Assembly (NCBI RefSeq): GCF_003991155.1 | Contig: NZ_CP031293.1 | Origin: Escherichia coli | GTDB taxonomy: Bacteria > Pseudomonadota > Gammaproteobacteria > Enterobacterales > Enterobacteriaceae | Direction: 5' to 3' (one strand) | DNA: 64,000 nucleotides | Translations under genes and position numbers: made by a program | Notes under the pieces: generated by a model | The model's input: only the letters and a program-made list of their open reading frames with translations | Told to the model about the DNA's origin: nothing | The model's database searches: none | Shown: piece by piece, positions 1,001 through 33,762 of the stretch | Layout: the number at the start of each line of letters is the position of its first letter | Numbering within the stretch: the first letter of the stretch is position 1

Positions 1001-1596
1001 AGATCAAAAAACAAGCAATCCACATAACAAAACGCGTTTTGTTACTGATGTCACAAATTGAGCATATTTTTGTATCTGATAGTTTGTTACAAACACCACA
1101 ACCAAGATGCCTATTTCGTTTCAGCATCAACTGTTAAATTATCTGGTTGCCAACGAGAATACTGAGCTTTTTTGTCCCTAAGACTGACCGTCAACGCAAC
1201 AATCTTTGACTGTTTGACATTGTCATGCCCGCAGGCCAGCGGATCTAAAGACATCAGACTGCTTGCATCAGCCAGTTGCGTATCTGGCTATGTCCCTTAA
1301 TTGGTAAGGGTTCGAGGAACTCAACATTAACGCATTTTTCAGCGCATCACCGACAGTGTATATGAACGATTGCACTCTGACGATGGTTGATTTATTTGGT
1401 TGCATAGGGGCTAGCTAGTCTGGTACCGGAGGCTGGATCTGAAGTACTGACCCTAGGAATAACGCCGGGCTGACTCATATTCTGACCCATTGTCAGCCCG
1501 CGTGTTTACTGCTCTAGCTCATTTCCTGTTGTCAGGCATTCAATTCCCAACTGCAGGTTATGGCCCGGTGAGCGAACACCTGACGGCAGGTATCAC

Positions 1597-1770
1597 TCAC
1601 CCGGAGAAGGTAAATCCCTCAAGGGGCAGCAACTCTGCCAGTCGCTCCTCCGGCCACTCCGGCAGACGTGTCAGGACGTCTGTCAGCCAGGCATGTGGCT
1701 CCAGACCGTTGCGTTTCGCGGTTTCCAGCAAGCTCATTATTTGCGCAGCGCGTTCTCCCGCCATACGACA
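1597..1770 (-). pseudogene. IS66-family transposase (TnpC) C-terminal remnant
   Basis: Minus-strand translation ...AGERAAQIMSLLETAKRNGLEPHAWLTDVLTRLPEWPEERLAELLPLEGFTFSG* matches the TnpC C-terminus (compare the intact copy at 13952..15523); no upstream portion present. Confidence 0.6.
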
Positions 1771-1779
1771 GCCGTCAGA

Positions 1780-3642
1780 GCAGTGCGTCAGCGGGCGGCA
1801 GTTTTACCTGGGGTGCTGGCAGAGGTGGTTATGGCAGCGCCAGCCGCGATAATATCCACAGCAACTATGATTCCGTTAATGAGCAGAGCGGTATTTTCGC
1901 AGGCCGGGGTTATTTTGATATCACTGTGGGGAATCACACTCAGCTCGATGGTGCGGTGATTGCTTCGACAGCACCTGCCGACAGGAACTCGCTGGACACC
2001 GGTACTCTGGGCTGGTCGGATATCCATAACCAGGCAGACTATAAAGCCAGCTATACCGGAATCAGTTTATCGGGTGGCTCAGGGATGTCAGCCAGCCAGA
2101 TGGTGGCCTCAAATGCAATAGCCGGTGCGGCGAACGCACTTACCGGTATGTCCGGCAGCAGTGGACATGCTGAAGGTACCACGTCATCCGCCATCAGCGG
2201 CGGAAATCTCATTATCCGTGATAAGGAGAGTCAGAAGCAGGATATTGCCGGGCTCAGCCGGGACCCGGAAAACGCCAACGGCAGCATTGCACCGATATTT
2301 GACAAGGAGAAAGAACAGAAGCGTCTGCAGGAAGCGCAGGTTATCAGCCAGATTAGCGGTCAGATGAGTAATATCGTAATGACGTATGGCGAAACTGAAG
2401 CGATGAAAGCAGCCTGGAAAGAGCATCCTGGCATGAGCGATGCACAGTTGCGGGAGACTCCGGAATACAGAGAGGTCATGAAAGGCTACGGTACGGGCAG
2501 TTCGCCGCAGATGGTGGTACAGGCCATCACGGGCGTGCTGGGCGGACTGAATGCAGGGAACCCGGGGCAGGTATTGGCGGGCGGTCTGAATCCGGCAGTG
2601 GCACAGCTTATAAAACAGTCCACCGGCGATAACCGGGAAGCAAACCTGATGGCTCACGCAGTCTGGGGTGCACTTGCCGCACAACTGGGCGGAAACAATG
2701 CGGCTTCCGGTGCTGCTGGGGCATTCAGTGGTGAACTTGCAGCCTGGTATATCATTGATAACTACTACGGTGGTCGTACCGATAACCTGAGTGAACAGGA
2801 ACGTCAGCAAATCAGCATGCTGGCCACCATTGCCTCTGGTATTGCGGGGGGACTTGCAGGCAACAGTACGGCGTCTGCCGGTACGGGTGCACAGGCAGGA
2901 ACTCGGCTGAAAACAATATGCTGAACGTGATAGCCACTGAAACAGCAGCTAATACGGCAGCAGCAATAGCTGGTGCTACAGGTAATGCCAGTAAGGATAC
3001 CGGGAATGATAATAGCTGGGATACCGGTGGTGTTACGCTGGCTACGGGAACAGTGTGCTGTACGTGATCCGAGTCGCGATGGCACCCGAGGACCGGGGCA
3101 TGTGCTGAATGGCGACAATACAGACGGAAACAAACAGCCGAATCTGGGCAAAGACGTAGCGAGCGCAACGGATAAGGATAAAGCTGAGCTTGGTGGTGCA
3201 GGTGCTGGAATACCGGGGGGGATGGGGACCGGATAATGAAGAAAAAGCCCGTCATCAGGAGGTTCAGCAACAACGATTTGATGAACTGAGTAAAATATAT
3301 GATAAAAGTCACCCGGCCGGAGAGTTAACGGTGGATGGGCAGACTATCAGGCAGAGTTCGGTAAGTAACCGTTATGGTACGACGAAAGTGTTTGAAAGCC
3401 AGACTTTGACGGATAAACAGATCCACAATTACGCACAGCAACTGGCAGGCGATACACCGCTGAAAGAGGTAAAATCGGGAATCTACACGTCTAAACTATC
3501 AGATGGTTCGGTAATAACACTTAGAAACATATCTACATCAGAAGGTCAGACAGGCGCTCGTTGGACTATAGATATTCGTAATAACCAAAAGCTTACTGAA
3601 CTGGGGAATAAATATTCACGTGTGGAGATTAAGTTCAAATGA
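1780..3642 (+). pseudogene. cdiA: Orphan cdiA-CT module 1: 5-prime-truncated CdiA fragment with C-terminal toxin domain, interrupted by at least two frameshifts
   Basis: ORF 1668..2924 encodes a Gly/Ala-rich CdiA pretoxin region; (A)ENN motif at 2906..2917 is in a different frame; toxin ORF 3190..3642 in a third frame; homopolymer G7 at 3214..3220; left end abuts the IS66 remnant. Confidence 0.7.
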
Positions 3643-3995
3643 TTACTGAGTTAAGTGAAAGAGAATACAAGGAGTTGACAGACGCTGCAGAGGGACAGAC
3701 TCTTGATGCTATTTTGTGTTATTCAGTTCCTGATATTCACCCTGCAGAGTTTAGTTTTGCAGATAGAAGAGAAATCTTTTTTTGGGCATTAACCCGTCTT
3801 CTGAAAGAAGGGCGTATCAAACTCGCCAAGCACGGTAAGTTTTTGGAAGGAAGTGTTGACGAGCAGGTTGAGCGTTTTCGACAGGCATTTCCGAAAACAG
3901 AAGAAGAGATGGAAGACGGTATCTGGTTTTTTGATGAGAGTTGTCCGGGGGGGGCTGTTTGGGTGCTTGAAGATGGCTCTCTCGAATGGACCTGA
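3639..3995 (+). CDS. cdiI: CdiI-type immunity protein for module 1 (118 aa, intact)
   Basis: Start overlaps the toxin stop (ATGA at 3639-3642); small acidic AT-rich ORF immediately 3-prime of a CdiA-CT domain. Confidence 0.65.
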
Positions 3996-5112
3996 TAACC
4001 CCTTCACAGCGCAGGATGCGGCGCAGCGAGCGTATAACAACGATATGGCGGCCTCAGTTTTTGGTACCGGAGGGAACGATACAGGCTACAACGGCAGCGG
4101 TACAGGGACTGGCCGGCGGTAATCTGAGTGCAGCCCTGGCAGGTGGTGCAGCACCGTATCTGGCCGAAGTGGTGAAAACCATGACCACAGACCCGGTTAC
4201 CGGTGAGGTGAATAAGGCTGCAAATGTGGCTGCTCATGCCGTGGTGAATGCCGCACTGGCTGTGGCACAGGGAAATAACGCTCTTGCCGGTGCTGTAGGT
4301 GCAGCCACCGGCGAGGTGGTGGGAATGATAGCCACACAGATGTACGGTAAGCCGGTGAGTGAACTGAGCGAGACAGAGAAGCAGACGGTCTCGACACTGG
4401 CAACGGTTGCTGCTGGCCTGGCCGGTGGTCTGGTGGGCGACTCGGGGCTTCAGCGGTAGCCGGCGCACAGTCAGGTAAGACGACTGTTGAGAATAATTTA
4501 CTTGGCGGTAGTGAAGATGCTCAGGCTGCGTGGATACGCCAGCATGGTATCGACATGGCAACATGTGCAGAAAACCCTTCTGGTGCCGCCTGCCAGAAAG
4601 CAATGAATGAGAGGGATGCTGTAGGGCTGGCTCTGGCAACAGGTACAGTGGCACTACTCCCCGGTAGTGCTCAGGCTGTGTGGGGACTGGGAGCAAGTGC
4701 GAATGCTGGTATCAGTTATCTGGCTGATGGTACTGTAGATCCGACAAACGCAGCCATTGCAGGCTGGGTGAATGTGTTCAGCATGGGTAATGGCCTGGCG
4801 GGGACTGTGGGCTGGAATGCGGCAGGTGGTGCGCTGGGTAACTGGATTGACAACAAAGATCCTCTGTCTGGTGCAATTTCAAATGGTATCGGTTCTGCTG
4901 CCGGGTATGGTATCGGTAAAGGTATTACTTGGGGGACAGATAATATTACGAATGCTGTAGGAAAATGGGTGACAAATGGCTGGGATCCTAAGTACGATCC
5001 AACATGGATAAAATATGCTGAAGTAAATCGTAACGATATCATTCGAGAAGGCATGAAACCGAGCAATGTTCTTGGAACTGCTGGAGATATTGGCGGTTCT
5101 ATAGGATCCTAG
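3986..5112 (+). pseudogene. cdiA: Orphan cdiA-CT module 2: CdiA pretoxin fragment, VENN motif, Gly-rich C-terminal toxin domain; frameshifted; no immunity ORF downstream
   Basis: ORF 3986..4459 (..[10 protein letters not shown]..) then frame change; GKTTVENNLLGG at 4474..4506 (VENN 4486..4497) in frame with ORF 4555..5112; nothing coding in 5113..5230. Confidence 0.7.
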
Positions 5113-5230
5113 CTAGGTGGAAAAGTAACTTAGTCTGCAAGGATCAGGAGTTACAGACGGCATTGGCTTTACGCTTACCGTTTTTTTACGCGCCAGAACA
5201 AGACTATGATAGCGTTGCCCTTATAGACGA

Positions 5231-5644
5231 TCACATTATCGTCCACTCCGACTTTGCGCAACTACTGTAGAGTGGTGTACTCCGCGGCTTCTTTGAGGAT
5301 CTCAACTTCCATGTTTTTTTACCCAGCAAGGGCTGTAACTCTTTTATTTTTATAGCGGCAGCCAGTTCTGAGGCAGGAACAACATCCTCTCCGGTAGTAA
5401 CAGCAGCGAGACTTCCTTCCAGGTATTGTTTTTTCCACTTAAACAACAGACTGGGCTGAATACCATGCAAATGCGCCACATGGGACACCCTCATGCCAGG
5501 CTCCGTTGTCTGCTGAATAATGGCAATTTTTTCCTGAGGAGTTTTACGTTTACGAAGCTCCTGCCCCAGCAAAGTTCCAGTTATCTCAAAATTAGAACTA
5601 GTGTTAGACATATATCCAAGCCTATCTCTTATTTTAAGATACAT
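5231..5644 (-). mobile_element. IS transposase OrfA-like HTH protein (IS66/IS3-type accessory protein), solitary, with a frame change at an A7 run
   Basis: ..[78 protein letters not shown] then out of frame; a -1 shift at the A7 run (plus-strand T7 at 5315..5321) restores the conserved ending [16 protein letters not shown]; no cognate transposase ORF adjacent. Confidence 0.6.
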
Positions 5645-5671
5645 CCACTGTCTGGCGTTTCAAGGGGCGCT

Positions 5672-6049
5672 TCAAGTTTTTTCAGACAGTTGAACTAGTA
5701 TACCAATACATTCTTGTTCAGCATCAATGATACATGCTTGGTATGTCGGGAAAAAAACAGAGGTTTCTTTTACAATATATCCACAATCATAACATTGATA
5801 CCATTTCCAGCCTTTTTCCTGAATATAGGAAATATGTAGAAAAAGTGGCAAGACCGATTCGTCTGAGTATCCCTGTTTTTTAGCATTTTCAATGCATAAC
5901 AATTGCGAATTATATGCGTTATCTGATTGAGACAAAAGATATCCATTTTTCTCATGACAATACCATCTCCATTTATTGTCATCAGTCTTATAAAATTTCC
6001 ATATTAATCTCTGATTTCCAGATATCTTATAAATCATAATATACTCCAC
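5672..6049 (-). CDS. Hypothetical protein (125 aa), AT-rich; weak resemblance to DUF1508/YegP-type repeat
   Basis: Intact ORF; sequence KFYKTDDNKWRWYCHEKNGYLLSQSDNAYNSQLLCIENAKKQG loosely resembles the YegP-family motif; no function assignable. Confidence 0.4.
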   Translation of the reverse strand: MEYIMIYKISGNQRLIWKFYKTDDNKWRWYCHEKNGYLLSQSDNAYNSQLLCIENAKKQGYSDESVLPLFLHISYIQEKGWKWYQCYDCGYIVKETSVFFPTYQACIIDAEQECIGILVQLSEKT

Positions 6050-6079
6050 TCCCCAAGGAGACGGCCCTGGGGAAGGTAA

Positions 6080-7444
6080 TCAGTGTTCTTTTATATATGC
6101 GGCTCTGTGACGTTCAAGTTCAATTGCACCACGATGTGATAACCAGCAGAAAATGATGCAACAAATAATACCGCAGCCAAGAAGATAAAATCCGCCATGC
6201 CAGCCAATATGATCGACCATAATACCAAACAGGCTGGTGCCCAGAGACGCACCGAAGATATAGCTCATAAAACCGCGTAAGCCTACTGCAGAACCAACAG
6301 CAAAGCTGGGAACGATCTCCATAGTCTGAACGGAAGCCAGAAATTGTGGAACGTAAATCAGGCAACCAACAATGGCAGCAAAAATTGTCACCATAAACAG
6401 CGATTCACTTTTCCAGTAGCCAATCAGGCAAATGAAAATCAGCGCCATACAAATCATCGCCAATGGCATACGACGCCCTTTAAACAGTTTGTCTGACAAC
6501 CAACCGGCAAGTAGCGTGGAAGGGATTGCGGCCCATTCAAAAAATAAAAACGCGACGCTCATTTGTTCTTTAGAAAAATGTTTCACCGTCAGCAGATAAA
6601 TAGGCAACCAGCTAATCATCCCGAAGCGTACCATGTATACAAATACGTCAACCAGTGAGACATACCAGGCATTTTTATTGCGTAATACATAAGTGCAGAA
6701 AATCTGAAAGGCACTCATGTTTTCTGGTGCTTTTACCGTCTGTCGGGTATTCAGGACGACTTTTTCTTCCGGCATCATCTCTTCCAGAGAGGGTAGACCT
6801 TCCTGACGTGGGGAACCTTTACCGAGAATCAGCACAATTACCGCAAAAACGATGGCCACGCAGGCCGGAACGATATAGCTCGCACTTTGCCAGTGCTCGC
6901 TGCCGAGTAGGGCAAAAGCGGCACCAACAATGGGTGCAACAATACCACCACCGACGTTATGAGAGATATTCCAGAAAGCACCAACCCGACCACGCTCCCG
7001 GCGAGGGAACCAGTTAGCAATAGTGATGAAAGAAGGACCAACGCCCATTCCCTGGAAAAGACCATTCAGAATAACCAATACCGCAAAAATCCAGAATGCG
7101 GTGCTGAATCCCAGGCCAACGTTAACGATGGCACATAACACCAGCCCACACGCCATAAAGACTTTCGGACTGGCTTTATCGGCAAGGCTACTCATCACTC
7201 CTTTGCTGATACCATAGGCGATAAGCATACAGCTACTCAGTACGCCAATTTGTGTGGCGCTGAGATCTAATTGCTCTTTAAGATAAGGCGTCGATAAGGT
7301 GAAATTATTACGCACGATATAGTATGCAAGATACCCCAGAAATACACTAAGTAACGCCTGCATACGATAGCGACGATATGTCACCTGAATTTTCTCCGCC
7401 GGAACACTATCCGCCGCTTGCCCCGTTTTAAATATTGATAACAT
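6080..7444 (-). CDS. pgtP: Phosphoglycerate transporter PgtP (organophosphate:phosphate antiporter, UhpT/GlpT family)
   Basis: 454-aa ORF with 12-TM MFS features and close match to remembered Salmonella PgtP; divergent from pgtCBA. Confidence 0.85.
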   Translation of the reverse strand: MLSIFKTGQAADSVPAEKIQVTYRRYRMQALLSVFLGYLAYYIVRNNFTLSTPYLKEQLDLSATQIGVLSSCMLIAYGISKGVMSSLADKASPKVFMACGLVLCAIVNVGLGFSTAFWIFAVLVILNGLFQGMGVGPSFITIANWFPRRERGRVGAFWNISHNVGGGIVAPIVGAAFALLGSEHWQSASYIVPACVAIVFAVIVLILGKGSPRQEGLPSLEEMMPEEKVVLNTRQTVKAPENMSAFQIFCTYVLRNKNAWYVSLVDVFVYMVRFGMISWLPIYLLTVKHFSKEQMSVAFLFFEWAAIPSTLLAGWLSDKLFKGRRMPLAMICMALIFICLIGYWKSESLFMVTIFAAIVGCLIYVPQFLASVQTMEIVPSFAVGSAVGLRGFMSYIFGASLGTSLFGIMVDHIGWHGGFYLLGCGIICCIIFCWLSHRGAIELERHRAAYIKEH

Positions 7445-7535
7445 GTCTTCACCTGTATTTTATATTGATATGAACACTTGGAGTATTCTGACAATGAGAG
7501 TTATATAATTGAGATGAAACATCAAACTGAAAAAA

Positions 7536-7553
7536 TGTGTCACAATTGACACA
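7536..7553. promoter_or_regulatory. Perfect inverted repeat TGTGTCA-caat-TGACACA in the pgtP/pgtC divergent intergenic region (candidate operator)
   Basis: Read directly from sequence; 7-bp arms, 4-bp spacer. Confidence 0.3.
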
Positions 7554-7842
7554 AATTAATAAAATCAAAGCCTGTTTTTGACCCATTTTATTGATGCATA
7601 GACAGGGTAGATTTATGCTTTATCTGTTTTATTGTTAGCATGTGCGGATATTAACAAATCTCATGCTGATTATCGGGTAATCACTGATTAATATATTAAC
7701 GCTCTCTTTGAGCAGATGTGTTATCAGACGAAGTGTCTGAAACGGGTAATTTTTGTCTCAATGCGATTTTTGCGGTGTATTAATATTTATGACCTGGATC
7801 ACAAACCGATTTTTTAGCTGGTGCGAAATCGGCATCAAAACC

Positions 7843-9060
7843 ATGATTCTTTTACTGTTGTTGATGGATACCGGGGCCGTCAGGGCTCAACGAAATGAAC
7901 TGGTGATGGCCACCACATTCTCACCCGGAGCTACCGCGTGGATAATACAGCGCTGGCAAACAGAGCCTGAGTCGGTAATGATCCGTACGCTTAACCGCAC
8001 CAGTGCCTCACTGGAACAGTTGCTTGATACGGCCAACGTAGAAAACGTCGATCTGATCCTGACTTCATCACCAATGCTGCTCCAGCACCTTCAGGAGCAC
8101 CAGAAACTTGCCCCGTTTGATGATGCACCCGCAGAAAGCCAAAATCTGGTGCCGGAGTCGATCCGTGCAACCTCCGTTGCAGTAGCAATATCAGGTTTTG
8201 GTCTGCTCATTAATCGTCCGGCGCTTTCTGTAAAACACCTTCCTGCCCCTGCTGACTGGGACGATCTTGCTTTGCCGATCTATCAGGACGCTTTATTGAT
8301 GAGTAGTCCGTCGCGTTCAGATACTAACCATTTAATGGTTGAGTCATTACTACAGCAAAAAGGCTGGGTGAAAGGATGGGAAACGTTGCTGACAAGTGCA
8401 GGAAACCTGGTGACAATCTCCTCCCGCAGTTTTGGCGTAGCCGATAAAATAAAAAGCGGACTCGGCGTTGCCGGCCCCGTTATCGATAACTATGCTAATT
8501 TACTGTTAAATGACCCCCATCTCTCTTTTACCTATTTCCCCCGGTCTGCGGTATCTCCCACCTACGTTGCAATTCTCAAGAAAAGCCCACACGCCGATGC
8601 AGCCCGTCGCTTTATTCACTACCTGTTAAGTCCGAAAGGACAGCGTATTCTGGCCGATGCCAATACAGGAAAATATCCGGTGACACCACTTGCCGCAGAC
8701 AACCCGCGGGCAACGCAACAACAGCTCCTGATGAATCAACCCCCGCTGAATTATCACCTTATCCTGAAACGTCAGCGTCTGGTGCAGCGCTTGTTTGATA
8801 CGGCAATTAGCTTTCGGTTAGCACAGCTAAAAGATGCCTGGCGAGCGCTGCACAGTACCGAGGCACGCCTGAAGAAACCATTACCAGAAATACGTGCACT
8901 GTTAACACAAGTGCCCGTTGCAGCGGCCAGCAGTGAAGATCCCTTCTGGCTGGCACAGTTCGATAACAAAAGCTTTGCCGAGCAGCAAATGATGGAATGG
9001 CAACTCTGGTTTCTGAATAACCAGCGCCTGGCGATAAAAAAACTGGAAGAGCTGAAATGA
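7843..9060 (+). CDS. pgtC: PgtC, phosphoglycerate transport regulatory protein (periplasmic-binding-protein-like)
   Basis: ORF 7753..9060; likely start at internal Met 7843 before a signal-peptide-like segment (MILLLLLMDTGAVRA); stop overlaps pgtB start; start uncertain. Confidence 0.7.
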   Translation: MILLLLLMDTGAVRAQRNELVMATTFSPGATAWIIQRWQTEPESVMIRTLNRTSASLEQLLDTANVENVDLILTSSPMLLQHLQEHQKLAPFDDAPAESQNLVPESIRATSVAVAISGFGLLINRPALSVKHLPAPADWDDLALPIYQDALLMSSPSRSDTNHLMVESLLQQKGWVKGWETLLTSAGNLVTISSRSFGVADKIKSGLGVAGPVIDNYANLLLNDPHLSFTYFPRSAVSPTYVAILKKSPHADAARRFIHYLLSPKGQRILADANTGKYPVTPLAADNPRATQQQLLMNQPPLNYHLILKRQRLVQRLFDTAISFRLAQLKDAWRALHSTEARLKKPLPEIRALLTQVPVAAASSEDPFWLAQFDNKSFAEQQMMEWQLWFLNNQRLAIKKLEELK

Positions 9061-11066
9061 AAAACATAACGCTGTGGCAGCGTTTAAGACAGGTCAGTAT
9101 CAGTACCAGCTTACGTTGCGCATTTCTGATGGGGGCACTACTGACCCTGATTGTCAGTAGTGTCAGTCTGTATTCATGGCATGAACAAAGCTCACAAATT
9201 CGTTACTCGCTGGATGAGTATTTTCCCCGTATTCACTCTGCTTTCCTTATTGAAGGGAACCTGAATCTGGTGGTAGACCAGCTAAATGAATTTTTGCAGG
9301 CTCCCAACACCACGGTGCGATTGCAACTTCGTACCCAGATTATTCAGCATCTCGACACCATAGAACGGCTTAGTCGGGGGCTGTCATCCCGGGAACGCCA
9401 ACAACTGACGGTCATTTTGCAGGACAGTCGATCACTGTTATCCGAGTTGGATCGTGCGCTTTACAACATGTTTTTACTACGGGAAAAGGTGAGTGAGCTA
9501 TCAGCGAGGATTGACTGGTTACACGATGATTTTACTACCGAGCTTAATTCTTTAGTGCAGGATTTCACCTGGCAGCAGGGAACGCTGCTGGATCAAATCG
9601 CCTCCCGACAGGGCGATACGGCGCAATACCTGAAGCGATCTCGTGAAGTGCAAAATGAACAGCAGCAGGTTTATACCCTGGCACGCATTGAAAATCAGAT
9701 TGTTGACGATCTGCGTGACAGACTCAATGAACTCAAATCAGGACGTGATGACGACACACAGGTGGAAACTCATCTCCGTTATTTTGAAAATCTGAAAAAA
9801 ACGGCAGATGAAAATATACGTATGCTGGATGACTGGCCTGGCACCATTACCCTGAGGCAGACTATCGATGAATTGCTGGATATGGGAATCGTAAAAAACA
9901 AAATGCCGGATACGATGCGTGAATATGTCGCCGCCCAAAAAGCCTTAGAGGATGCCAGTCGCACCAGGGAAGCGACACTGGGTCTCTTCAGAACGTTACT
10001 GGAAGCGCAGCTTGGCAGTACTCATCAACAAATGCAGATGTTTAATCAACGAATGGAACAAATTGTTCGCGTTAGCGGTGGGCTGATCCTAGTGGCGACA
10101 GCACTGGCGTTACTGCTGGCATGGGTATTCAACCATTATTTTATCCGCTCACGGTTGGTGAAACGCTTTACCCTACTGAATCAGGCCGTTGTGCAAATTG
10201 GTCTGGGAGGCACGGAAACGACTATTCCTGTTTATGGGAATGATGAACTGGGGAGAATTGCAGGATTATTACGCCATACTCTCGGGCAGCTCAATGTGCA
10301 AAAACAGCAACTTGAACAAGAAATTACCGATCGAAAGGTGATAGAAGCCGATCTGCGTGCCGCCCAGGACGAACTGATTCAGACAGCGAAGTTGGCGGTA
10401 GTCGGGCAAACGATGACCACGCTGGCCCACGAGATCAATCAGCCGCTAAATGCGCTGTCGATGTATCTGTTTACAGCCCGCAGGGCCATTGAACAGACCC
10501 AGATAGAACAGGCCTGCATGATGCTTGGTAAAGCCGAAGGGGTGATTAGTCGCATTGACGCCATTATCCGTTCACTACGGCAGTTTACCCGGCGCGCCGA
10601 ACTGGAAATATCACTCCATGCCATTGATTTAGCAAAGATGTTCAGTGCGGCCTGGGAACTTCTGGCCATGCGTCATCGCCCTTTGCAAGCTACGCTTGTT
10701 CTGCCACAAGGTACAGCCACAGTTTCAGGCGATGAGGTCAGAACCCAGCAGGTACTGGTTAACGTACTGGCGAATGCGCTTGATGTTTGTGGGCAAGGCG
10801 CTGTCATTACCGTTAACTGGCAAATGCAGGGTAAAACGCTGAACGTATTCATTGGCGATAATGGCCCGGGCTGGCCTGAGGCATTGTTGCCTTCGTTATT
10901 GAAGCCGTTTACCACCAGTAAAGAAATAGGACTGGGTATTGGTCTTTCAATTTGTGTGTCGTTAATGGAGCAAATGAAAGGGGAATTACGGCTGGCATCA
11001 ACGATGACCAGGAATGCCTGTGTGGTACTGCAATTCAGACTAACGGATGTGGAAGATGCTAAGTAG
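9057..11066 (+). CDS. pgtB: PgtB sensor histidine kinase
   Basis: 669-aa ORF with N-terminal TM/sensor region, H-box (LAHEINQPLNAL) and ATPase G-boxes (GDNGPGW, GLGIGLS); 4-bp overlap with pgtC. Confidence 0.85.
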   Translation: MKNITLWQRLRQVSISTSLRCAFLMGALLTLIVSSVSLYSWHEQSSQIRYSLDEYFPRIHSAFLIEGNLNLVVDQLNEFLQAPNTTVRLQLRTQIIQHLDTIERLSRGLSSRERQQLTVILQDSRSLLSELDRALYNMFLLREKVSELSARIDWLHDDFTTELNSLVQDFTWQQGTLLDQIASRQGDTAQYLKRSREVQNEQQQVYTLARIENQIVDDLRDRLNELKSGRDDDTQVETHLRYFENLKKTADENIRMLDDWPGTITLRQTIDELLDMGIVKNKMPDTMREYVAAQKALEDASRTREATLGLFRTLLEAQLGSTHQQMQMFNQRMEQIVRVSGGLILVATALALLLAWVFNHYFIRSRLVKRFTLLNQAVVQIGLGGTETTIPVYGNDELGRIAGLLRHTLGQLNVQKQQLEQEITDRKVIEADLRAAQDELIQTAKLAVVGQTMTTLAHEINQPLNALSMYLFTARRAIEQTQIEQACMMLGKAEGVISRIDAIIRSLRQFTRRAELEISLHAIDLAKMFSAAWELLAMRHRPLQATLVLPQGTATVSGDEVRTQQVLVNVLANALDVCGQGAVITVNWQMQGKTLNVFIGDNGPGWPEALLPSLLKPFTTSKEIGLGIGLSICVSLMEQMKGELRLASTMTRNACVVLQFRLTDVEDAK

Positions 11067-12303
11067 TGAATATTCGATTCTGCTGATTGATGATGATGCA
11101 GATGTGCTGGACGCCTACACACAGTTACTTGAACAGTCAGGCTATCGGGTTTTTGCCTGTAACAATCCTTTTGAGGCGCAGGCGTGGATACAACCAGACT
11201 GGCCAGGCATTGTGCTAAGTGATGTGTGTATGCCTGGCTGCTCTGGTATCGATTTGATGATGTTATTCCACCAGGATGATCAACAGATCCCCATTCTGCT
11301 TATCACCGGGCACGGCGACGTGCCAATGGCAGTTGATGCGGTAAAAAAAGGCGCGTGGGATTTTTTGCAAAAACCGGTTGATCCCGGCAAATTGCTTTCT
11401 CTGGTTGAAGAGGCGCTACGCCAGCGTCAATCAATCATTGCGCGTCGTCAGTATTGCCAACAGACATTGCAGGTGGAGTTGATAGGGAGAAGTGAATGGA
11501 TAAATCAGTATCGGCGACGTTTACAGCAGTTGTCTGAGACAGATATTGCCGTCTGGCTCTACGGTGCCCCTGGCACAGGACGGATGACCGGTGCACGTTA
11601 TCTGCACCAATTTGGACGTAATGCACAAGGCGAATTTGTCTACCGCGAGCTGACACCAGACAATGCACCACAGCTTAATGATTTCATTGCGCTGGCTCAG
11701 GGGGGAACATTAGTGCTCAGCCATCCTGAACACCTGACGCGTGAACAGCAGTACCATCTGGTTCAGTTACAAAGCCAGGAACACAGACCTTTTCGCCTGA
11801 TTGGTATTGGAGACACCTCGCTGGTCGAGCTGGCCGCCAGCAACCATATCATCGCGGAGCTCTATTACTGCTTTGCAATGACACAAATCGCTTGCCTGCC
11901 ATTAACTCAACGCCCCGACGATATTGAACCACTGTTTCGCCACTACCTTTGTAAGGCATGTCAACGGCTTAACCATCCTGTTCCGGAAGTGGGAAAAGAG
12001 ATGCTCAAAGAGATGATGCGCCGCATGTGGCCAAATAATGTGCGAGAGCTGGCCAATGCAGCAGAACTGTTTACTGTAGGAATATTACCGCTGGCAGAAA
12101 CAGCAAACCCGTTGATGCACGTCGGAACCCCGGCACCGCTTGACAGGCGAGTGGAGGACGCTGAGCGACAGATAATCACAGAGGCGCTTAATATCCATCA
12201 GGGGCGTATCAATGAGGTTGCTGAATATTTACAAATCCCACGGAAAAAACTCTATCTCAGAATGAAAAAATACGGTCTTAGTAAGGAGCATTATAAAATT
12301 TAA
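11047..12303 (+). CDS. pgtA: PgtA, NtrC-family (sigma-54-dependent type) response regulator
   Basis: Receiver domain (LLIDDD...D), AAA+ central domain (GAPGTGR), C-terminal HTH; overlaps pgtB by 20 nt. Confidence 0.85.
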   Translation: MWKMLSSEYSILLIDDDADVLDAYTQLLEQSGYRVFACNNPFEAQAWIQPDWPGIVLSDVCMPGCSGIDLMMLFHQDDQQIPILLITGHGDVPMAVDAVKKGAWDFLQKPVDPGKLLSLVEEALRQRQSIIARRQYCQQTLQVELIGRSEWINQYRRRLQQLSETDIAVWLYGAPGTGRMTGARYLHQFGRNAQGEFVYRELTPDNAPQLNDFIALAQGGTLVLSHPEHLTREQQYHLVQLQSQEHRPFRLIGIGDTSLVELAASNHIIAELYYCFAMTQIACLPLTQRPDDIEPLFRHYLCKACQRLNHPVPEVGKEMLKEMMRRMWPNNVRELANAAELFTVGILPLAETANPLMHVGTPAPLDRRVEDAERQIITEALNIHQGRINEVAEYLQIPRKKLYLRMKKYGLSKEHYKI

Positions 12304-12907: not shown

Positions 12908-13585
12908 ATGTCCATCATTTTTAATGGACACTATCGTATGGAATACCGGACCTGGATCACCGAAGCTTTACGTCTTCACTTTGAAGAACATTTACCACGG
13001 ATTGTGGCCGGACGTCGCCTGGGCGTACCAAAATCAACAGTTTGTGGTATGTTCGTGCGCTTCCGCAAAGCTGGCCTTTCATGGCCTCTGCCCGCAGGTA
13101 TGTCGGAGCGGGAACTTGATGCCCGTCTTTACGGGAGTGCCTCCACAGTACCTGTCGTACTTACTGAAAACACCGTTATGTCCGAAGTCCCGGTGGTAAA
13201 AAAACGTCCCCGGCGGCCTAATTTTCCTTATGAGTTTAAAATCGCCTTAGTGGAGCAGTCACTGCAGCCCGGAGCCTGTGTGGCGCAGATCGCCCGTGAA
13301 AACGGAATCAACGATAACCTGCTCTTCAACTGGCGCCATCAATACCGGAAAGGTGGCCTGCTGCCTTCCGGAAAAAATATGCCTGCACTGCTTCCCGTGA
13401 CGTTAACGCCGGAGCCGGATAATAAAATCCCGGCTCCGGCACAGGAACCAGAGCAGATAAATACACCGTCCGACAGTCTGTGCTGTGAGCTGGTTCTGCC
13501 GGCCGGAACTCTCAGGCTGAAAGGTGAACTGACACCGGCGTTATTACAGACACTTATCCGCGAAATGAAAGGGAGCAGCCACTGA
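12908..13585 (+). CDS. tnpA: IS66-family accessory protein TnpA (ORF as tracked; true start may be internal)
   Basis: Contains ..FPYEFKIALVEQSLQPGACVAQIARENGINDNLLFNWRHQYRKGG.. typical of IS66 OrfA. Confidence 0.7.
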   Translation: MSIIFNGHYRMEYRTWITEALRLHFEEHLPRIVAGRRLGVPKSTVCGMFVRFRKAGLSWPLPAGMSERELDARLYGSASTVPVVLTENTVMSEVPVVKKRPRRPNFPYEFKIALVEQSLQPGACVAQIARENGINDNLLFNWRHQYRKGGLLPSGKNMPALLPVTLTPEPDNKIPAPAQEPEQINTPSDSLCCELVLPAGTLRLKGELTPALLQTLIREMKGSSH

Positions 13586-13932
13586 TGATATCTCTCCCTG
13601 CAGGTTCGCGTATCTGGCTGGTTGCCGGTATCACCGACATGCGAAATGGCTTTAACGGCCTGGCCTCAAAAGTTCAGAACGTCCTGAAGGATGACCCGTT
13701 CTCCGGACACCTGTTCATCTTCCGCGGACGCCGGGGTGACCAGATAAAAGTGTTGTGGGCTGACAGCGACGGACTGTGCCTCTTCACCAAACGCCTGGAG
13801 CGGGGCCGCTTCGTCTGGCCGGTCACCCGTGACGGCAAGGTGCACCTTACTCCGGCCCAGTTATCCATGCTTCTTGAGGGCATCGACTGGAAACATCCAA
13901 AACGAACGGAACGCACTGGCATCCGCATATAA
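13585..13932 (+). CDS. tnpB: IS66-family TnpB
   Basis: MISLPAGSRIWLVAGITDMRNGFNGLA... is the canonical IS66 OrfB start; ATGA overlap with tnpA. Confidence 0.85.
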   Translation: MISLPAGSRIWLVAGITDMRNGFNGLASKVQNVLKDDPFSGHLFIFRGRRGDQIKVLWADSDGLCLFTKRLERGRFVWPVTRDGKVHLTPAQLSMLLEGIDWKHPKRTERTGIRI

Positions 13933-13951
13933 CCCGTTGTAAAGTGAGGAT

Positions 13952-15523
13952 ATGGACACCTCACTTGCTCATGAGAACGCCCGCCTGCGGGCACTGTTGC
14001 AGGCGCAACAGGACACCATCCGCCAGATGGCCGAATACAATTGCCTGCTCTCACAGCGGGTGGCGGCTTATGCTTCTGAAATCAACCGGCTGAAGGCGCT
14101 GGTTGCAAAACTGCAGCGCATGCAGTTCGGTAAAAGCTCAGAAAAACTTCGCGCAAAAACCGAACGACAGATACAGGAAGCACAGGAGCGAATCAGCGCA
14201 CTTCAGGAAGAAATGGCGGAAACACTGGGTGAGCAATATGACCCGGCACTGCCATCTTCCCTGCGCCAGTCTTCAGCCCGTAAACCGTTACCGGCTGCAC
14301 TTCCCCGTGAATCCCGGGTTATCCGGCCGGAAGAGGAATGCTGCCCGGCTTGTGGTGGCGAACTCAGTTCTCTGGGATGTGATGTGTCAGAGCAACTGGA
14401 GCTTATCAGCAGCGCCTTTAAGGTTATCGAAACACAACGTCCGAAACTGGCCTGTTGCCGGTGCGACCATATCGTGCAGGCACCAGTACCTTCAAAACCC
14501 ATTGCACGCAGTTATGCCGGAGCGGGGCTTCTGGCTCATATCGTCACCGGGAAGTATGCAGACCATCTGCCGTTATACCGCCAGTCAGAAATATACCGTC
14601 GTCAGGGCGTGGAACTGAGCCGCGCCACGCTGGGGCGCTGGACCAGTGCCGTTGCTGAACTGCTGGAGCCGCTGTATGACGTGCTGCGCCAGTATGTGCT
14701 GATGCCCGGTAAAGTCCATGCGGATGATATCCCCGTTCCGGTCCAGGAGCCGGGCAGTGGTAAAACAAGAACTGCCCGGCTGTGGGTTTACGTCCGTGAT
14801 GACCGTAACGCCGGTTCACAGATGCCCCCGGCGGTCTGGTTCGCGTACAGCCCGGACCGGAAAGGTATCCATCCACAGAATCACCTGGCCGGTTACAGCG
14901 GTGTGCTTCAGGCCGATGCTTACGGTGGTTACCGGGCGTTATACGAATCCGGCAGAATAACGGAAGCCGCGTGTATGGCCCATGCCCGGAGAAAAATCCA
15001 CGATGTGCATGCAAGAGCGCCTACCGATATCACCACGGAAGCCCTGCAGCGTATCGGTGAACTGTATGCAATCGAGGCAGAGGTCCGGGGATGTTCAGCA
15101 GAACAGCGTCTGGCGGCAAGAAAAGCCAGAGCTGCGCCACTGATGCAGTCGTTGTACGACTGGATACAGACTCAGATGAAAACACTGTCGCGTCACTCGG
15201 ATACGGCAAAAGCGTTCGCATACCTGCTGAAACAGTGGGGTGGCCTGAACGTGTACTGCAGTAATGGCTGGGTGGAAATCGACAACAACATCGCAGAGAA
15301 CGCCTTACGGGGAGTAGCCGTAGGCCGGAAAAACTGGCTGTTCGCAGGTTCCGACAGCGGTGGTGAACATGCGGCGGTGTTGTACTCGCTGATCGGCACA
15401 TGTCGTCTGAACAATGTGGAGCTAGAAAAGTGGCTGCGCTACGTCATTGAGCATATCCAGGACTGGCCGGCAAACCGGGTACGCGATCTGTTGCCCTGGA
15501 AAGTTGATCTGAGCTCTCAGTAA
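13952..15523 (+). CDS. tnpC: IS66-family transposase TnpC
   Basis: 523-aa ORF with N-terminal leucine zipper, CxxC zinc ribbon (CPACGG) and DDE domain. Confidence 0.85.
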
Positions 15524-15873
15524 ATATCAATACGGTTCTGACGAGCCGCTTACCCTTTAAAAAGGTATAGGTATATAACAGTAATATCTGATCGTAACGG
15601 ACGGACGCTGGAATTAACCGATGACCGCAGCACAGAGAGTAGGGGATGCGGACGGTCAAAGATCGCGGCGTTGGATTTTATAAATCTGTCTCCAGTAGTA
15701 GATGAACTGAATACAAAGTTGCCAGAGAGTGGTCTGTCAGGCAGGGAATCAGAAACTGGATATTATTGACTGGTACATTGTGTCGGGCTGTGTACGTTCT
15801 CCCCGGACAGACAGTCTCAGTTCGTAGAATCTATAAATTACTGCTACTGATGCTGCCGGGGAAAGGCGTAACG

Positions 15874-15910
15874 AAAAAACAGCCTCCGTTACCGGACAGC
15901 AAGGAGGCTG
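15874..15910 (-). terminator. Intrinsic terminator-like hairpin (CAGCCTCC / GGAGGCTG stem followed by T6 on the minus strand), about 190 bp downstream of papI
   Basis: Inverted repeat and U-tract read from sequence. Confidence 0.4.
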
Positions 15911-16101
15911 AATGGAGTTTACAGGATTTGCTTTTTTATAATGTCTGGCCATGCAGTAAAACCGGACAGGTTTTATTATCATGTGAGGTATTCTGACATA
16001 AAATGCTGGATTTTTATTTTGTGACGAATGCTGCAAAATTGAATCTGCACTCTGATGTAACTTTTATCTGTTTCAGTGAAGCATGCCCACAAATTGAGTT
16101 A

Positions 16102-16335
16102 TTAAGTTGTGGAAGAACAGTTTTGTCCCGCCTGCATCTCTCCTTTCAAAAACCAGTATGTTGCCATGCCTCGCCTTAATGGAGAGCGCTGAACCACACC
16201 TTCTTTTTCCAGTAATAACAGGTAATAGCGTGCCTGATAATCCGTTACCGCCAGCGCCTCCGCAATTTCTGCGGTTTTCCCTCCATTATGCCTGTTCAGA
16301 AATTCCAGTATTTCATTCTTCATATATTCACTCAT
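16102..16335 (-). CDS. papI: PapI, pap phase-variation regulator
   Basis: 77-aa [65 protein letters not shown]... matches PapI; divergent from papB. Confidence 0.95.
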
Positions 16336-16528
16336 CTCACTGTAACAAAGTTTCTTCGAATAATAAAAATCATGCTCTCTGTTATCAACGGAAAGGTATT
16401 TTTATTCTCTATGTTTGCTTTATTTGTGAAATTTAGTGAATTTGCTTTTTGTTGGCTTTATTTGATGTGTATCACATTTTGTGTGTTATTTTTCTGTGAA
16501 AAGAAAGTCCGTAAAAATGCATTTAGAC

Positions 16529-16634
16529 GATCTTTTATGCTGTAAATTCAATTCACCATGATGTTTTTATCTGAGTGTATTCTTGTTGTTGGTGTTTTAT
16601 TCTGGTTTGATTTTGTTTTGTGGGTTAAAAGATC
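16529..16634. promoter_or_regulatory. pap phase-variation switch: distal GATC (16529..16532) and proximal GATC (16631..16634), 102 bp apart, in the papI/papB intergenic region
   Basis: Two GATC sites in the expected contexts (GACGATCTTTTA and AAAGATCGTTTA) at the canonical spacing. Confidence 0.85.
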
Positions 16635-16739
16635 GTTTAAATCAATATTTACAACATAAAAAACTAAATTTAACTTATTGCGTGAAGAGTATTTCAGGGC
16701 CGGAAGCATATATCCAGGGGCCCGACAGAAGGGGGAAAC

Positions 16740-17054
16740 ATGGCGCATCATGAAGTCATCAGTCGGTCAGGAAATGCGTTTTTGCTGAATATACGCGAGA
16801 GCGTACTGTTGCCCGGCTCTATGTCTGAAATGCATTTTTTTTTACTGATAGGTATTTCTTCTATTCACAGTGACAGGGTCATTCTGGCTATGAAGGACTA
16901 TCTGGTAGGTGGGCACTCCCGTAAGGAGGTCTGCGAGAAATACCAGATGAATAATGGGTATTTCAGTACAACACTGGGGAGACTTATACGGCTGAATGCT
17001 CTTGCAGCAAGGCTTGCACCTTATTATACAGATGAGTCGTCGGCATTTGACTAA
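16740..17054 (+). CDS. papB: PapB transcriptional regulator
   Basis: 104-aa ORF MAHHEVISRSGNAFLLNIRESVLLPGS... matches PapB. Confidence 0.95.
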   Translation: MAHHEVISRSGNAFLLNIRESVLLPGSMSEMHFFLLIGISSIHSDRVILAMKDYLVGGHSRKEVCEKYQMNNGYFSTTLGRLIRLNALAARLAPYYTDESSAFD

Positions 17055-17261
17055 ATTATGGCATTCCGGAGTTTCTGGAAGATAAAAAAAGAAGTCCTTA
17101 TCAGAAAGCAGACAGGTTATATCAGTATTCTGTCGATAAATAACCTGCCCTGAAAATACGAGAATATTATTTGTATTGATCTGGTTATTAAAGGTAATCG
17201 GGTCATTTTAAATTGCCAGATATCTCTGGTGTGTTCAGTAATGAAAAAGAGGTTGTTATTT

Positions 17262-17810
17262 ATGATTAAGTCGGTTATTGCCGGTGCGGTAGCTATGGCA
17301 GTGGTGTCTTTTGGTGTAAATGCTGCTCCAACTACTCCACAGGGGCAGGGTAGAGTAACCTTTAACGGAACTGTTGTTGATGCTCCATGCAGCATTTCTC
17401 AGAAATCAGCTGATCAGTCTATTGATTTTGGACAGCTTTCAAAAAGCTTCCTTGAGGCAGGAGGTACATCCAAGCCAATGGATTTAGATATTGAGTTAGT
17501 AAATTGCGATATTACAGCTTTTAAACAAGGTCAACCAGCTAAAAACGGTAAGGTTCAATTATCTTTTACTGGGCCACAAGTAACGGGGCAGACTGAAGAA
17601 TTAGCAACTAACGGCGGTACGGGCACAGCTATTGTAGTTCAGGCTGCAGGCAAAAACGTTTCTTTCGATGGGACTGCAGGTGACGCTTATCCCCTGAAAG
17701 ATGGTGATAATGTTCTTCATTATACAGCTCTTGTGAAAAAAGCGAATGGCGGTACTGTTTCTGAAGGTGCTTTTTCTGCAGTTGCAACCTTTAATTTAAG
17801 TTACCAGTAA
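17262..17810 (+). CDS. papA: PapA major P-pilus subunit
   Basis: Start at MIKSVIAGAVAMAVVSFGVNA (signal peptide); pilin C-terminal motif; ORF track start 17229 is probably an upstream in-frame Met. Confidence 0.9.
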   Translation: MIKSVIAGAVAMAVVSFGVNAAPTTPQGQGRVTFNGTVVDAPCSISQKSADQSIDFGQLSKSFLEAGGTSKPMDLDIELVNCDITAFKQGQPAKNGKVQLSFTGPQVTGQTEELATNGGTGTAIVVQAAGKNVSFDGTAGDAYPLKDGDNVLHYTALVKKANGGTVSEGAFSAVATFNLSYQ

Positions 17811-17872
17811 TTCATCTGATTTTTACAGGGTGAGGCAAGACCCACCCTGTGTCTGACAACGACATTTAAGGT

Positions 17873-18460
17873 ATGAAGAATTTTTGTGTTCTGTTTGTGA
17901 TGTATTTCTGGAGTACATTACTTCATGCTGTATCTTCAGAGCCATTTCCTCCGCCCGGCATGTCCCTTCCTGAATACTGGGGAGAAGAACACGTATGGTG
18001 GGATGGCAGGGCTACTTTTCATGGTGAGGTTGTCAGACCTGCCTGTACTCTGGCGATGGAAGACGCCTGGCAGATTATTGATATGGGGGAAACCCCGGTA
18101 CGGGATTTACAGAATGGTTTCTCCGGACCTGAAAGAAAATTCAGCCTCCGGCTCAGGAATTGTGAATTTAACAGTCAGGGTGGGAACCTTTTCTCTGATT
18201 CCCGGATAAGGGTGACTTTCGATGGCGTCCGGGGTGAAACGCCGGATAAGTTTAATTTATCCGGTCAGGCAAAAGGAATTAATCTGCAGATAGCTGATGC
18301 CAGGGGAAATATTGCCCGGGCAGGGAAAGTAATGCCTGCAATACCATTGACGGGTAATGAAGAAGCGCTGGATTACACCCTCAGAATTGTGAGAAACGGA
18401 AAAAAACTTGAAGCCGGAAATTATTTTGCTGTGCTGGGATTCCGGGTCGATTATGAGTGA
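17873..18460 (+). CDS. papH: PapH pilus terminator/anchor subunit
   Basis: 195-aa ORF matching PapH (..PFPPPGMSLPEYWGEEHVWWDGRA..). Confidence 0.9.
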   Translation: MKNFCVLFVMYFWSTLLHAVSSEPFPPPGMSLPEYWGEEHVWWDGRATFHGEVVRPACTLAMEDAWQIIDMGETPVRDLQNGFSGPERKFSLRLRNCEFNSQGGNLFSDSRIRVTFDGVRGETPDKFNLSGQAKGINLQIADARGNIARAGKVMPAIPLTGNEEALDYTLRIVRNGKKLEAGNYFAVLGFRVDYE

Positions 18461-18518
18461 GTCACTCCGGTGAGATGTCCGGTTATTTATCTTTTTTGTG
18501 AATCTGGTGATGCGTGGA

Positions 18519-33686: not shown

Positions 33687-33762
33687 TGGTGCCCGGACTC
33701 GGAATCGAACCAAGGACACGGGGATTTTCAATCCCCTGCTCTACCGACTGAGCTATCCGGGC
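33687..33762 (-). tRNA. pheV: tRNA-Phe (GAA anticodon), 76 nt including CCA
   Basis: Reverse complement reads GCCCGGATAGCTCAGTCGGTAGAGCAGGGGATTGAAAATCCCCGTGTCCTTGGTTCGATTCCGAGTCCGGGCACCA; locus assigned as pheV from flanking yqgA/speC. Confidence 0.95.

Follow-up and report, generated by a model that had tools for sequence, protein, structure and literature searches.

Orphan cdiA-CT/cdiI modules, displaced pieces of contact-dependent growth inhibition (CDI) loci that carry the C-terminal toxin region (CT) of CdiA and its immunity gene, were defined in E. coli EC93, EC869 and Y. pseudotuberculosis (Poole et al. 2011, PMC3150448). Cassette exchange precise to the VENN motif is a pattern described in the same study. 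The sections of Ruhe et al. 2016 that bear on cdi islands (PMC4927057, Fig 1B family) describe pheV-integrated islands with NC101-type toxins, displaced orphan modules and transposase debris. Here, we describe positions 1597–5112 of a 64,000-nucleotide (nt) stretch of E. coli DNA (NZ_CP031293.1), which is called the window as a whole. We read 1597–5112 as a decaying orphan cdiA-CT/cdiI array in a tRNA-Phe island, with an intact cdiBAI encoding an NC101-type tRNase toxin just to the left of the window, and we put the probability of this reading at roughly 0.88. The array is an ordinary, degenerate example of a known island family, and its kind is already known. Its pieces are annotated in RefSeq by the Prokaryotic Genome Annotation Pipeline (PGAP) as 'VENN motif pre-toxin domain-containing protein', 'DUF596 domain-containing protein' and transposase pseudogenes.

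The array resembles the modules of Poole et al. (PMC3150448) in most features. Both of its modules are cdiA fragments without a 5' part or start codon, and in tblastn they cover only CdiA residues 2610–3077. Each keeps pre-toxin sequence and a VENN-type motif, after which the two modules are unrelated, with matches to CTs found in other strains. A small immunity open reading frame (ORF) follows the CT of module 1, while that of module 2 has been deleted beyond 5129. Blocks of homology start and end at VENN, and insertion sequence (IS) remnants are present. The array is also downstream of a cdiBAI and in the same orientation, which can be seen in NZ_CP070170.1 and NZ_AP025675.1 and not inside the window. 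It differs from the orphans of Poole et al. in lying 4.8 kb from cdiI, behind IS fragments and the opposite-strand nanXY genes, in having lost the immunity gene of module 2, and in having only 64% nt identity to the resident cdiA. Each of its toxins carries several inactivating lesions, unlike the EC93 orphan pair, which is functional (PMC3150448). The islands of Ruhe et al. share with this one the tRNA-Phe site, a cdiBAI with the NC101 tRNase CT, fimbrial and accessory genes, and fragmented cdiA-CT/cdiI with transposase remnants downstream. Nothing essential differs from that family as those sections present it, and the two modules and their lesions are not itemized there. A third comparison is to the genome SMBL (NZ_CP061914.1), whose cdi locus is collinear with 1764–4336 at 93% from cdiA through cdiI and into the first orphan; the shared block comprises the pre-toxin region, the AENN junction, the first CT (CT1), a DUF596 cdiI and the head of the next orphan. 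SMBL differs from the array in having an intact 3,167-codon cdiA with cdiB upstream, a different neighborhood and a long orphan array, where our array keeps only the last 1.9 kb of cdiA in a frameshifted state.

The initial annotation, made from the window, described two tandem modules with VENN-type junctions and unrelated CT domains, detached from any cdiB or cdiA. Direct reading, Pfam and tblastn bear out the two modules, and the AENN and VENN motifs are where they had been placed. It was also right that the window holds neither cdiB nor a full-length cdiA. By tblastn, neither CdiB nor the main CdiI matches any part of the 64 kb, and the full CdiA matches only 1671–2900 and 4079–4617; there is no ORF of cdiA length. 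A complete CDI system (CdiB, CdiA with two-partner secretion (TPS) domain and filamentous hemagglutinin (FHA) repeats, and cognate CdiI in one operon) is found neither in 1597–5112 nor in the rest of the window. The detachment, though, is an effect of where the window starts. The window is identical at 100% to E. coli FDAARGOS_1284 (NZ_CP070170.1) in two separate tested segments with one consistent offset, such that position 1 is position 756751 of that record. There, intact cdiB, cdiA and cdiI lie upstream of the array, with cdiI ending 3.0 kb before the window begins. This complete system carries a different CT and CdiI from those of the array, its CT matching PDB 5i4q, the NC101 tRNase toxin. 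The same layout of cdiBAI and array is found in strain Rb-3 (NZ_AP025675.1). Between cdiI and module 1 lie an IS4 fragment, an integrase fragment, ythA, nanY, nanX and an IS66 fragment, and the window begins inside nanX. Since the linkage to an intact cdiBAI is hidden by the window boundary, the claim of detachment is wrong, and the absence of cdiB and cdiA from the window must not be taken as absence from the genome.

The arrangement is also widespread. More than 20 complete E. coli genomes match positions 1400–5300 at 100% identity, and coverage of these positions reaches at least 80% in 56 genomes. The linking segment, which runs from the cdiA 3' end to where module 1 starts, has a coverage of 80% or more in 63 complete genomes, among them all 30 of the array carriers listed. 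Strain NC101 itself carries exactly this array. The features and their coordinates are collected in Table 1.

Table 1. Features of the orphan array, its boundaries and the linked cdiBAI. Positions are those of the window unless an accession is given.
Feature	Position	Strand	Remarks
IS66-family end fragment	1422–1764	-	last 55 codons of tnpC (1597–1764), cut internally at 1764
Module 1 pre-toxin region	1765–2905	+	3' part of former full-length cdiA; no start codon, TPS domain or FHA repeats
Frameshift 1, CAGG repeat	2892–2899	+	one CAGG unit lost, just upstream of AENN; three units in SMBL, two in C10, two in the window
AENN junction, module 1	2906–2917	+	GCT GAA AAC AAT, read directly
CdiA-CT 1 (CT1)	2918–3641	+	low-complexity N-terminal/linker part 2918–~3230; C-terminal toxin domain of ~140 residues, ~3231–3641
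cdiI-o1, DUF596, 118 codons	3639–3995	+	intact; ATGA overlap with the CT1 stop
Module 2 pre-toxin fragment	3996–4485	+	starts directly after the cdiI-o1 stop; two frameshifts
VENN junction, module 2	4486–4497	+	GTT GAG AAT AAT; cassette-exchange breakpoint
CdiA-CT 2 (CT2)	4498–5129	+	glycine-rich; nonsense codon TAG 5110–5112; truncated at 5129
IS3-family (IS2-like) fragment	5278–5680	-	degraded orfA, ORF 5231–5644; right array boundary
tRNA-Phe (GAA)	33687–33762	-	tyrosine recombinase annotated nearby in matching genomes
cdiB	NZ_CP070170.1 741753–743525	same as array	intact
cdiA, 3,288 codons	NZ_CP070170.1 743538–753404	same as array	intact
cdiI	NZ_CP070170.1 753418–753738	same as array	intact

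The left end of the array abuts a remnant of an IS66 TnpC, as was first noted. The minus-strand ORF 1597–1764 matches positions 355–387 of the 387 in the NCBIfam transpos_IS66 model (E 4.5e-8), and PGAP labels the piece 'transposase domain-containing protein, missing N-terminus'. Plasmid copies of IS66 match from 1422 or 1440 onwards and stop exactly at 1764. The parts of an IS66 element (TnpC DDE transposase, tnpA, tnpB and terminal repeats) are not assembled here; about 33 positions of the TnpC model and ~170 nt of element end remain. Homology to cdiA begins at 1764/1765, directly at the IS66 edge. Because an internal point of tnpC is joined to an internal point of cdiA, the junction is a deletion scar and not a simple insertion.

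Module 1 is recognizably CdiA from that edge onwards. The translation of 1770–2899 matches Pfam PT-VENN at E 8.6e-11, and residues 2610–3030 of the NC101-type CdiA match 1671–2900 in tblastn with 51% identity (E 6e-94). The similarity to CdiA that had been proposed for 1800–2900, and for the region before the second VENN, therefore has PT-VENN and tblastn matches in both places. At the nucleotide level, 1765–2905 is 92% identical to the intact SMBL cdiA (SMBL locus 10866 onwards) and 99.7% identical to strain C10. Judged by this collinearity, module 1 is evidently what remains, the last 1.9 kb, of a cdiA that was once full-length; SMBL still has this gene intact. The intact SMBL CdiA reads ...GAQAGRNSAENNMLNV... 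at the AENN junction. In SMBL, CT1 forms the CT of the full-length CdiA, and the toxin domains are 99.8% identical.

The toxic activity of CT1 was sought in several ways. Pfam searches with the single sequence and with 31 family members were negative or uninformative, as were searches of NCBIfam and of PDB by sequence and by profile; Foldseek against AFDB50 returned only uncharacterized toxin C-termini. A BECR-type RNase was considered from motifs and dropped, since no BECR structure scored. Thus, of the profile and structure searches suggested at the outset for the two CTs, those aimed at CT1 function yielded nothing, and those on module 2 gave PT-VENN only. CT1 is also found at the C-termini of CdiA/FHA proteins, of Xylella DUF769 proteins, of a protein with a type VII secretion system (T7SS) signal and of a PKD-domain protein.

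Neither toxin can be made or exported, because there is no start codon, no TPS/FHA part and no cdiB linked to the modules in one operon, and because the frames are broken; the initial statement that neither module can yield an intact toxin holds. The lesions were located by alignment to intact relatives, and the CAGG site by three-way alignment with SMBL and C10. The frame is broken in four places in module 1 and in two places in module 2, with a nonsense codon and a 3' truncation in addition, two lesions that the initial annotation had not noted. Relative to SMBL, CT1 has lost 1 nt at ~3032 and 1 nt at ~3044 and has gained a G in the G-run 3215–3221. C10 shares the IS66 junction and the loss of the CAGG unit, but the three later indels are absent from it and its CT1 is continuous. 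Therefore, the truncation and the CAGG frameshift, being shared with C10, are older, and the other lesions accumulated in the lineage of the window. In module 2, an 11-nt deletion at ~4077 and the loss of a G in the run 4444–4447 are seen relative to C10, where the frame is continuous.

Two of these lesions fall in G-runs (3215–3221 and 4444–4447), which is a typical site of error for some sequencing platforms, and one could ask if the frame changes are errors of sequencing or assembly in modules that are really intact. This is effectively refuted, and we give it almost no weight. More than 20 independent complete assemblies, which come from different hosts and were made in different laboratories and countries, agree at 100% over the 3.9 kb that includes the lesions, which excludes sequencing error and confirms that the frameshifts are real. 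The other lesions are the loss of a 4-nt repeat unit, an 11-nt deletion, a nonsense substitution and a truncation. Even repaired modules would still be without a start codon and a secretion part.

Module 2 has the same plan as module 1, with a shorter pre-toxin part. PGAP labels it 'VENN motif pre-toxin domain-containing protein; frameshifted; incomplete'. PT-VENN matches the sequence that immediately precedes the second VENN (E 3.6e-4), and CdiA residues 2903–3019 match 4079–4617 in tblastn (E 2.6e-23). The second VENN is a precise breakpoint. Homology to C10 stops at 4497, exactly on the final base of VENN, and from there on C10 has an Ntox25-type CT; homology to an orphan of CFT073 starts exactly at 4486. 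Since C10 continues differently after the shared VENN, the content of the array downstream of 4497 varies between lineages. In the C10 locus (7119–10929), the second VENN is followed by the Ntox25-type toxin, a putative immunity gene and further orphan fragments.

CT2 shares no similarity with CT1, and the homolog sets of the two are distinct. Orphans that match CT2 occur in CFT073 and, downstream of another E. coli cdiA, at locus L005, where an intact CT2 orphan of 311 amino acids (aa) is followed by an 85-codon cdiI. The codon TAG at 5110–5112 is GAG both in CFT073 and in the intact copy. Homology to CFT073 ends at 5129, and measured against the intact orphan, this means that the last ~12 codons of CT2 and its whole cognate cdiI have been lost. 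The CFT073 locus (2010–9235) has a degraded cdiB/cdiA, and its first orphan is CT2 starting exactly at VENN, with a lesion of its own, TGG to TAG; the CFT073 copy of the CT2 immunity gene is apparently shortened, at 51 codons against 85. The SMBL locus has a long orphan array (13107–20115) that includes a relative of CT2 (14208–15089). Also in this array are a DNA/RNA non-specific endonuclease, a TNT-like toxin with Imm63, and a toxin whose CdiI, WP_001222075.1, appears in the list of group-3 ionophore immunity proteins. Among the database homologs listed for CT1 and CT2, nearly all are short (80–390 aa) and are not full-length CdiA. The two CTs thus appear to persist mostly as orphan or fragmentary copies, although biases of pseudogene calling and of hit lists could produce the same picture.

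The likeliest activity of CT2, at about even odds, is that of a membrane-acting toxin, judging from motifs and from the partner of its intact copy. CDI ionophore toxins have been described with a small two-helix CdiI of 72–100 residues, glycine zippers and a five-helix bundle (Halvorsen et al. 2024, PMC11630599). CT2 has glycine-zipper G-x3-G-x3-G motifs at its residues 136, 142 and 203. Its cognate CdiI at L005, a gene absent from the window, has 85 aa and two hydrophobic segments (two-transmembrane pattern, Kyte–Doolittle maximum 2.82). These two features agree with the ionophores, as does a collinear weak match to the group-3 profile. CT2 is unlike them in that no significant sequence match was found. 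BLASTP of CT2 to the group-3 ionophore toxin and of its CdiI was negative (toxin match E 0.9), Pfam gave no match to CT2 beyond PT-VENN, and the peptide strings of CT2 and its CdiI have no match in the text supplementary files of the ionophore paper (PMC11630599). The hhalign probability of CT2 against the group-3 family was 98.8% with the shared VENN region and 24.6% (E 8e-4) after trimming; the assignment of CT2 to the group-3 ionophores on the former figure was rejected, as it came from shared pre-toxin/VENN columns. The AlphaFold2 (AF2) model of CT2 is unreliable, with a predicted local distance difference test score (pLDDT) of 42.6.

From these alignments, we infer the following order of events. 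The array would be a 3' block captured from a second cdi locus, one of the SMBL type, and made up of the last 1.9 kb of cdiA, the DUF596 gene and the pre-toxin head of the next orphan. First, a deletion with one end inside an IS66 element would have removed cdiB and ~8 kb of cdiA. Then, the CT after the second VENN would have been exchanged, giving CT2 here and Ntox25 in C10. Finally, slippage mutations together with a single nonsense codon and a 3' deletion associated with IS sequences would have inactivated both toxins and removed the immunity gene of CT2. So read, the locus clearly illustrates the 'fossil record' model for cdi loci, with a displaced cdiA 3' end, VENN-precise exchange and IS-mediated truncation. 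Decay would be stepwise, by slippage, with the immunity gene outlasting the toxin. The importance of this is small beyond annotation hygiene, although specialists may find use in a CT1/DUF596 pair that has no solved structural relative and in a candidate membrane toxin in CT2.

The gene that outlasts its toxin is cdiI-o1, the only intact gene of the array. It matches Pfam DUF596 (PF04591) over model positions 1–69 of 69 (E 2.8e-17). Its place directly after a polymorphic toxin CT, the same as that of the gene after the intact SMBL cdiA, agrees with membership in DUF596. It differs by 1 aa from the CdiI after the SMBL cdiA and by 3 aa from that of C10, and it has a weak match to PDB 2o5h. If transcribed, cdiI-o1 would, we infer, bind and neutralize CT1-type toxins delivered by rare neighbors with an SMBL-type CdiA. 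A broader proposal is that CT1 and its DUF596 partner form a widespread uncharacterized polymorphic toxin/immunity family, and that cdiI-o1 is kept by the B2-type lineage as a working stand-alone immunity gene; this is possible, but we think it rather unlikely.

Several observations weigh against the reading of the locus as an orphan array of the known kind with an immunity gene that might still act. The gap to cdiI contains unrelated genes and is longer than in textbook orphan arrays, which directly follow cdiI. In ECE170 (NZ_CP196906.1), the array is at 6052–9952 and the linking segment is far off at 1614354–1621754; these coordinates suggest a rearrangement or a duplicated segment in that one genome. 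Promoter-like sites in 1200–5700 are at the chance level (7, against 4.1 ± 2.2 in shuffled sequence), and the scan for promoters and terminators found nothing above the shuffled expectation. Read-through from cdiBAI is unlikely because nanXY stands on the opposite strand between cdiBAI and the array. Finally, the ratio of non-synonymous to synonymous change (pN/pS) of cdiI-o1 is low, at 0.08 relative to C10, but it may date from before the capture and hence be no proof of present selection.

The chance-level promoter signal is also what one would see if nothing in 1597–5112 were expressed or selected and cdiI-o1 were only a short ORF not yet hit. In this case, survival would need no function, since 357 nt is a small target next to 2.6 kb of toxin sequence with seven lesions. 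No cognate toxin is encoded at another locus of the array-bearing genomes, which have no intact copy of CT1; in most records, CT1 has a single location. A full-length cdiA with CT1 looks rare in complete E. coli genomes, SMBL being the only one among the matches listed. On the other hand, cdiI-o1 is intact in every carrier, its differences from C10 are 10 synonymous and 3 non-synonymous, a GGAG stands ~12 nt upstream of its ATG, and the expression of an orphan cdiI has been documented in EC93 (PMC3150448). We rate the chance that the whole array is such a fossil at a little short of even.

The decaying orphan array could instead be a store of silent cassettes that homologous recombination fuses to the upstream cdiA, so that a new toxin is deployed. 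A reserve model of this sort has been proposed for orphans (PMC4927057), and the passages of that paper on the matter cite recombination to deploy a new toxin as demonstrated for Rhs orphans in Salmonella. The orientation of the array is the same as that of the upstream cdiA, and the VENN-precise breakpoints show that cassette exchange did occur in its past. Nevertheless, with both CTs multiply broken and CT2 without an immunity gene, fusion would give a dead toxin, and it would also delete the resident cdiI and nanXY. The initial annotation had put forward the pre-toxin region as a recombination substrate for a full cdiBAI elsewhere in the genome. Now that this cdiBAI has been located, the region proves a poor one: the 64% nt identity of the upstream cdiA to 1765–2917 extends over ~600 nt (53% at the aa level, ~69% nt near VENN), and the longest exact matches are 23 nt for module 1 and 13 nt for module 2. 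A role as a reservoir is accordingly very improbable.

Returning to the decaying array in its island, its right boundary is a fragment of a different IS family from the left. The fragment matches the NCBIfam IS2 repressor TnpA (E 1e-34), and plasmid copies of the IS3 family match 5278–5680 at 93–94%. The idea that the left and right fragments are halves of one IS66 element split by the array was rejected, since the right one is IS3/IS2-like. Between the end of CT2 and this fragment, 5130–5277 contains short IS-associated repeats, and short repeated pieces at 5126–5230 recur in many genomes. The tRNA-Phe gene far to the right (Table 1) probably marks the integration site and the end of the island that holds the cdi locus and the array.

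Several genes lie between these two boundaries. A 125-codon hypothetical gene, WP_000639469.1, lies on the minus strand at 5672–6049, between the IS3-like fragment and pgtP. It is built of two similar KW-rich half-repeats, and the one family that it matches, faintly, is HVO_2922 (E 0.008). Then comes an accessory module of the island that RefSeq annotates in identical genomes as a phosphoglycerate transport system (6080–12303); its pgtP gene is on the minus strand, whereas pgtC, pgtB and pgtA are on the plus strand. At ~13300–23300, the annotation of the identical Rb-3 stretch shows a complete P-fimbrial (pap) operon that includes papX and the papG-III adhesin allele. The pap operon fits a uropathogenic, B2-type pathogenicity island.

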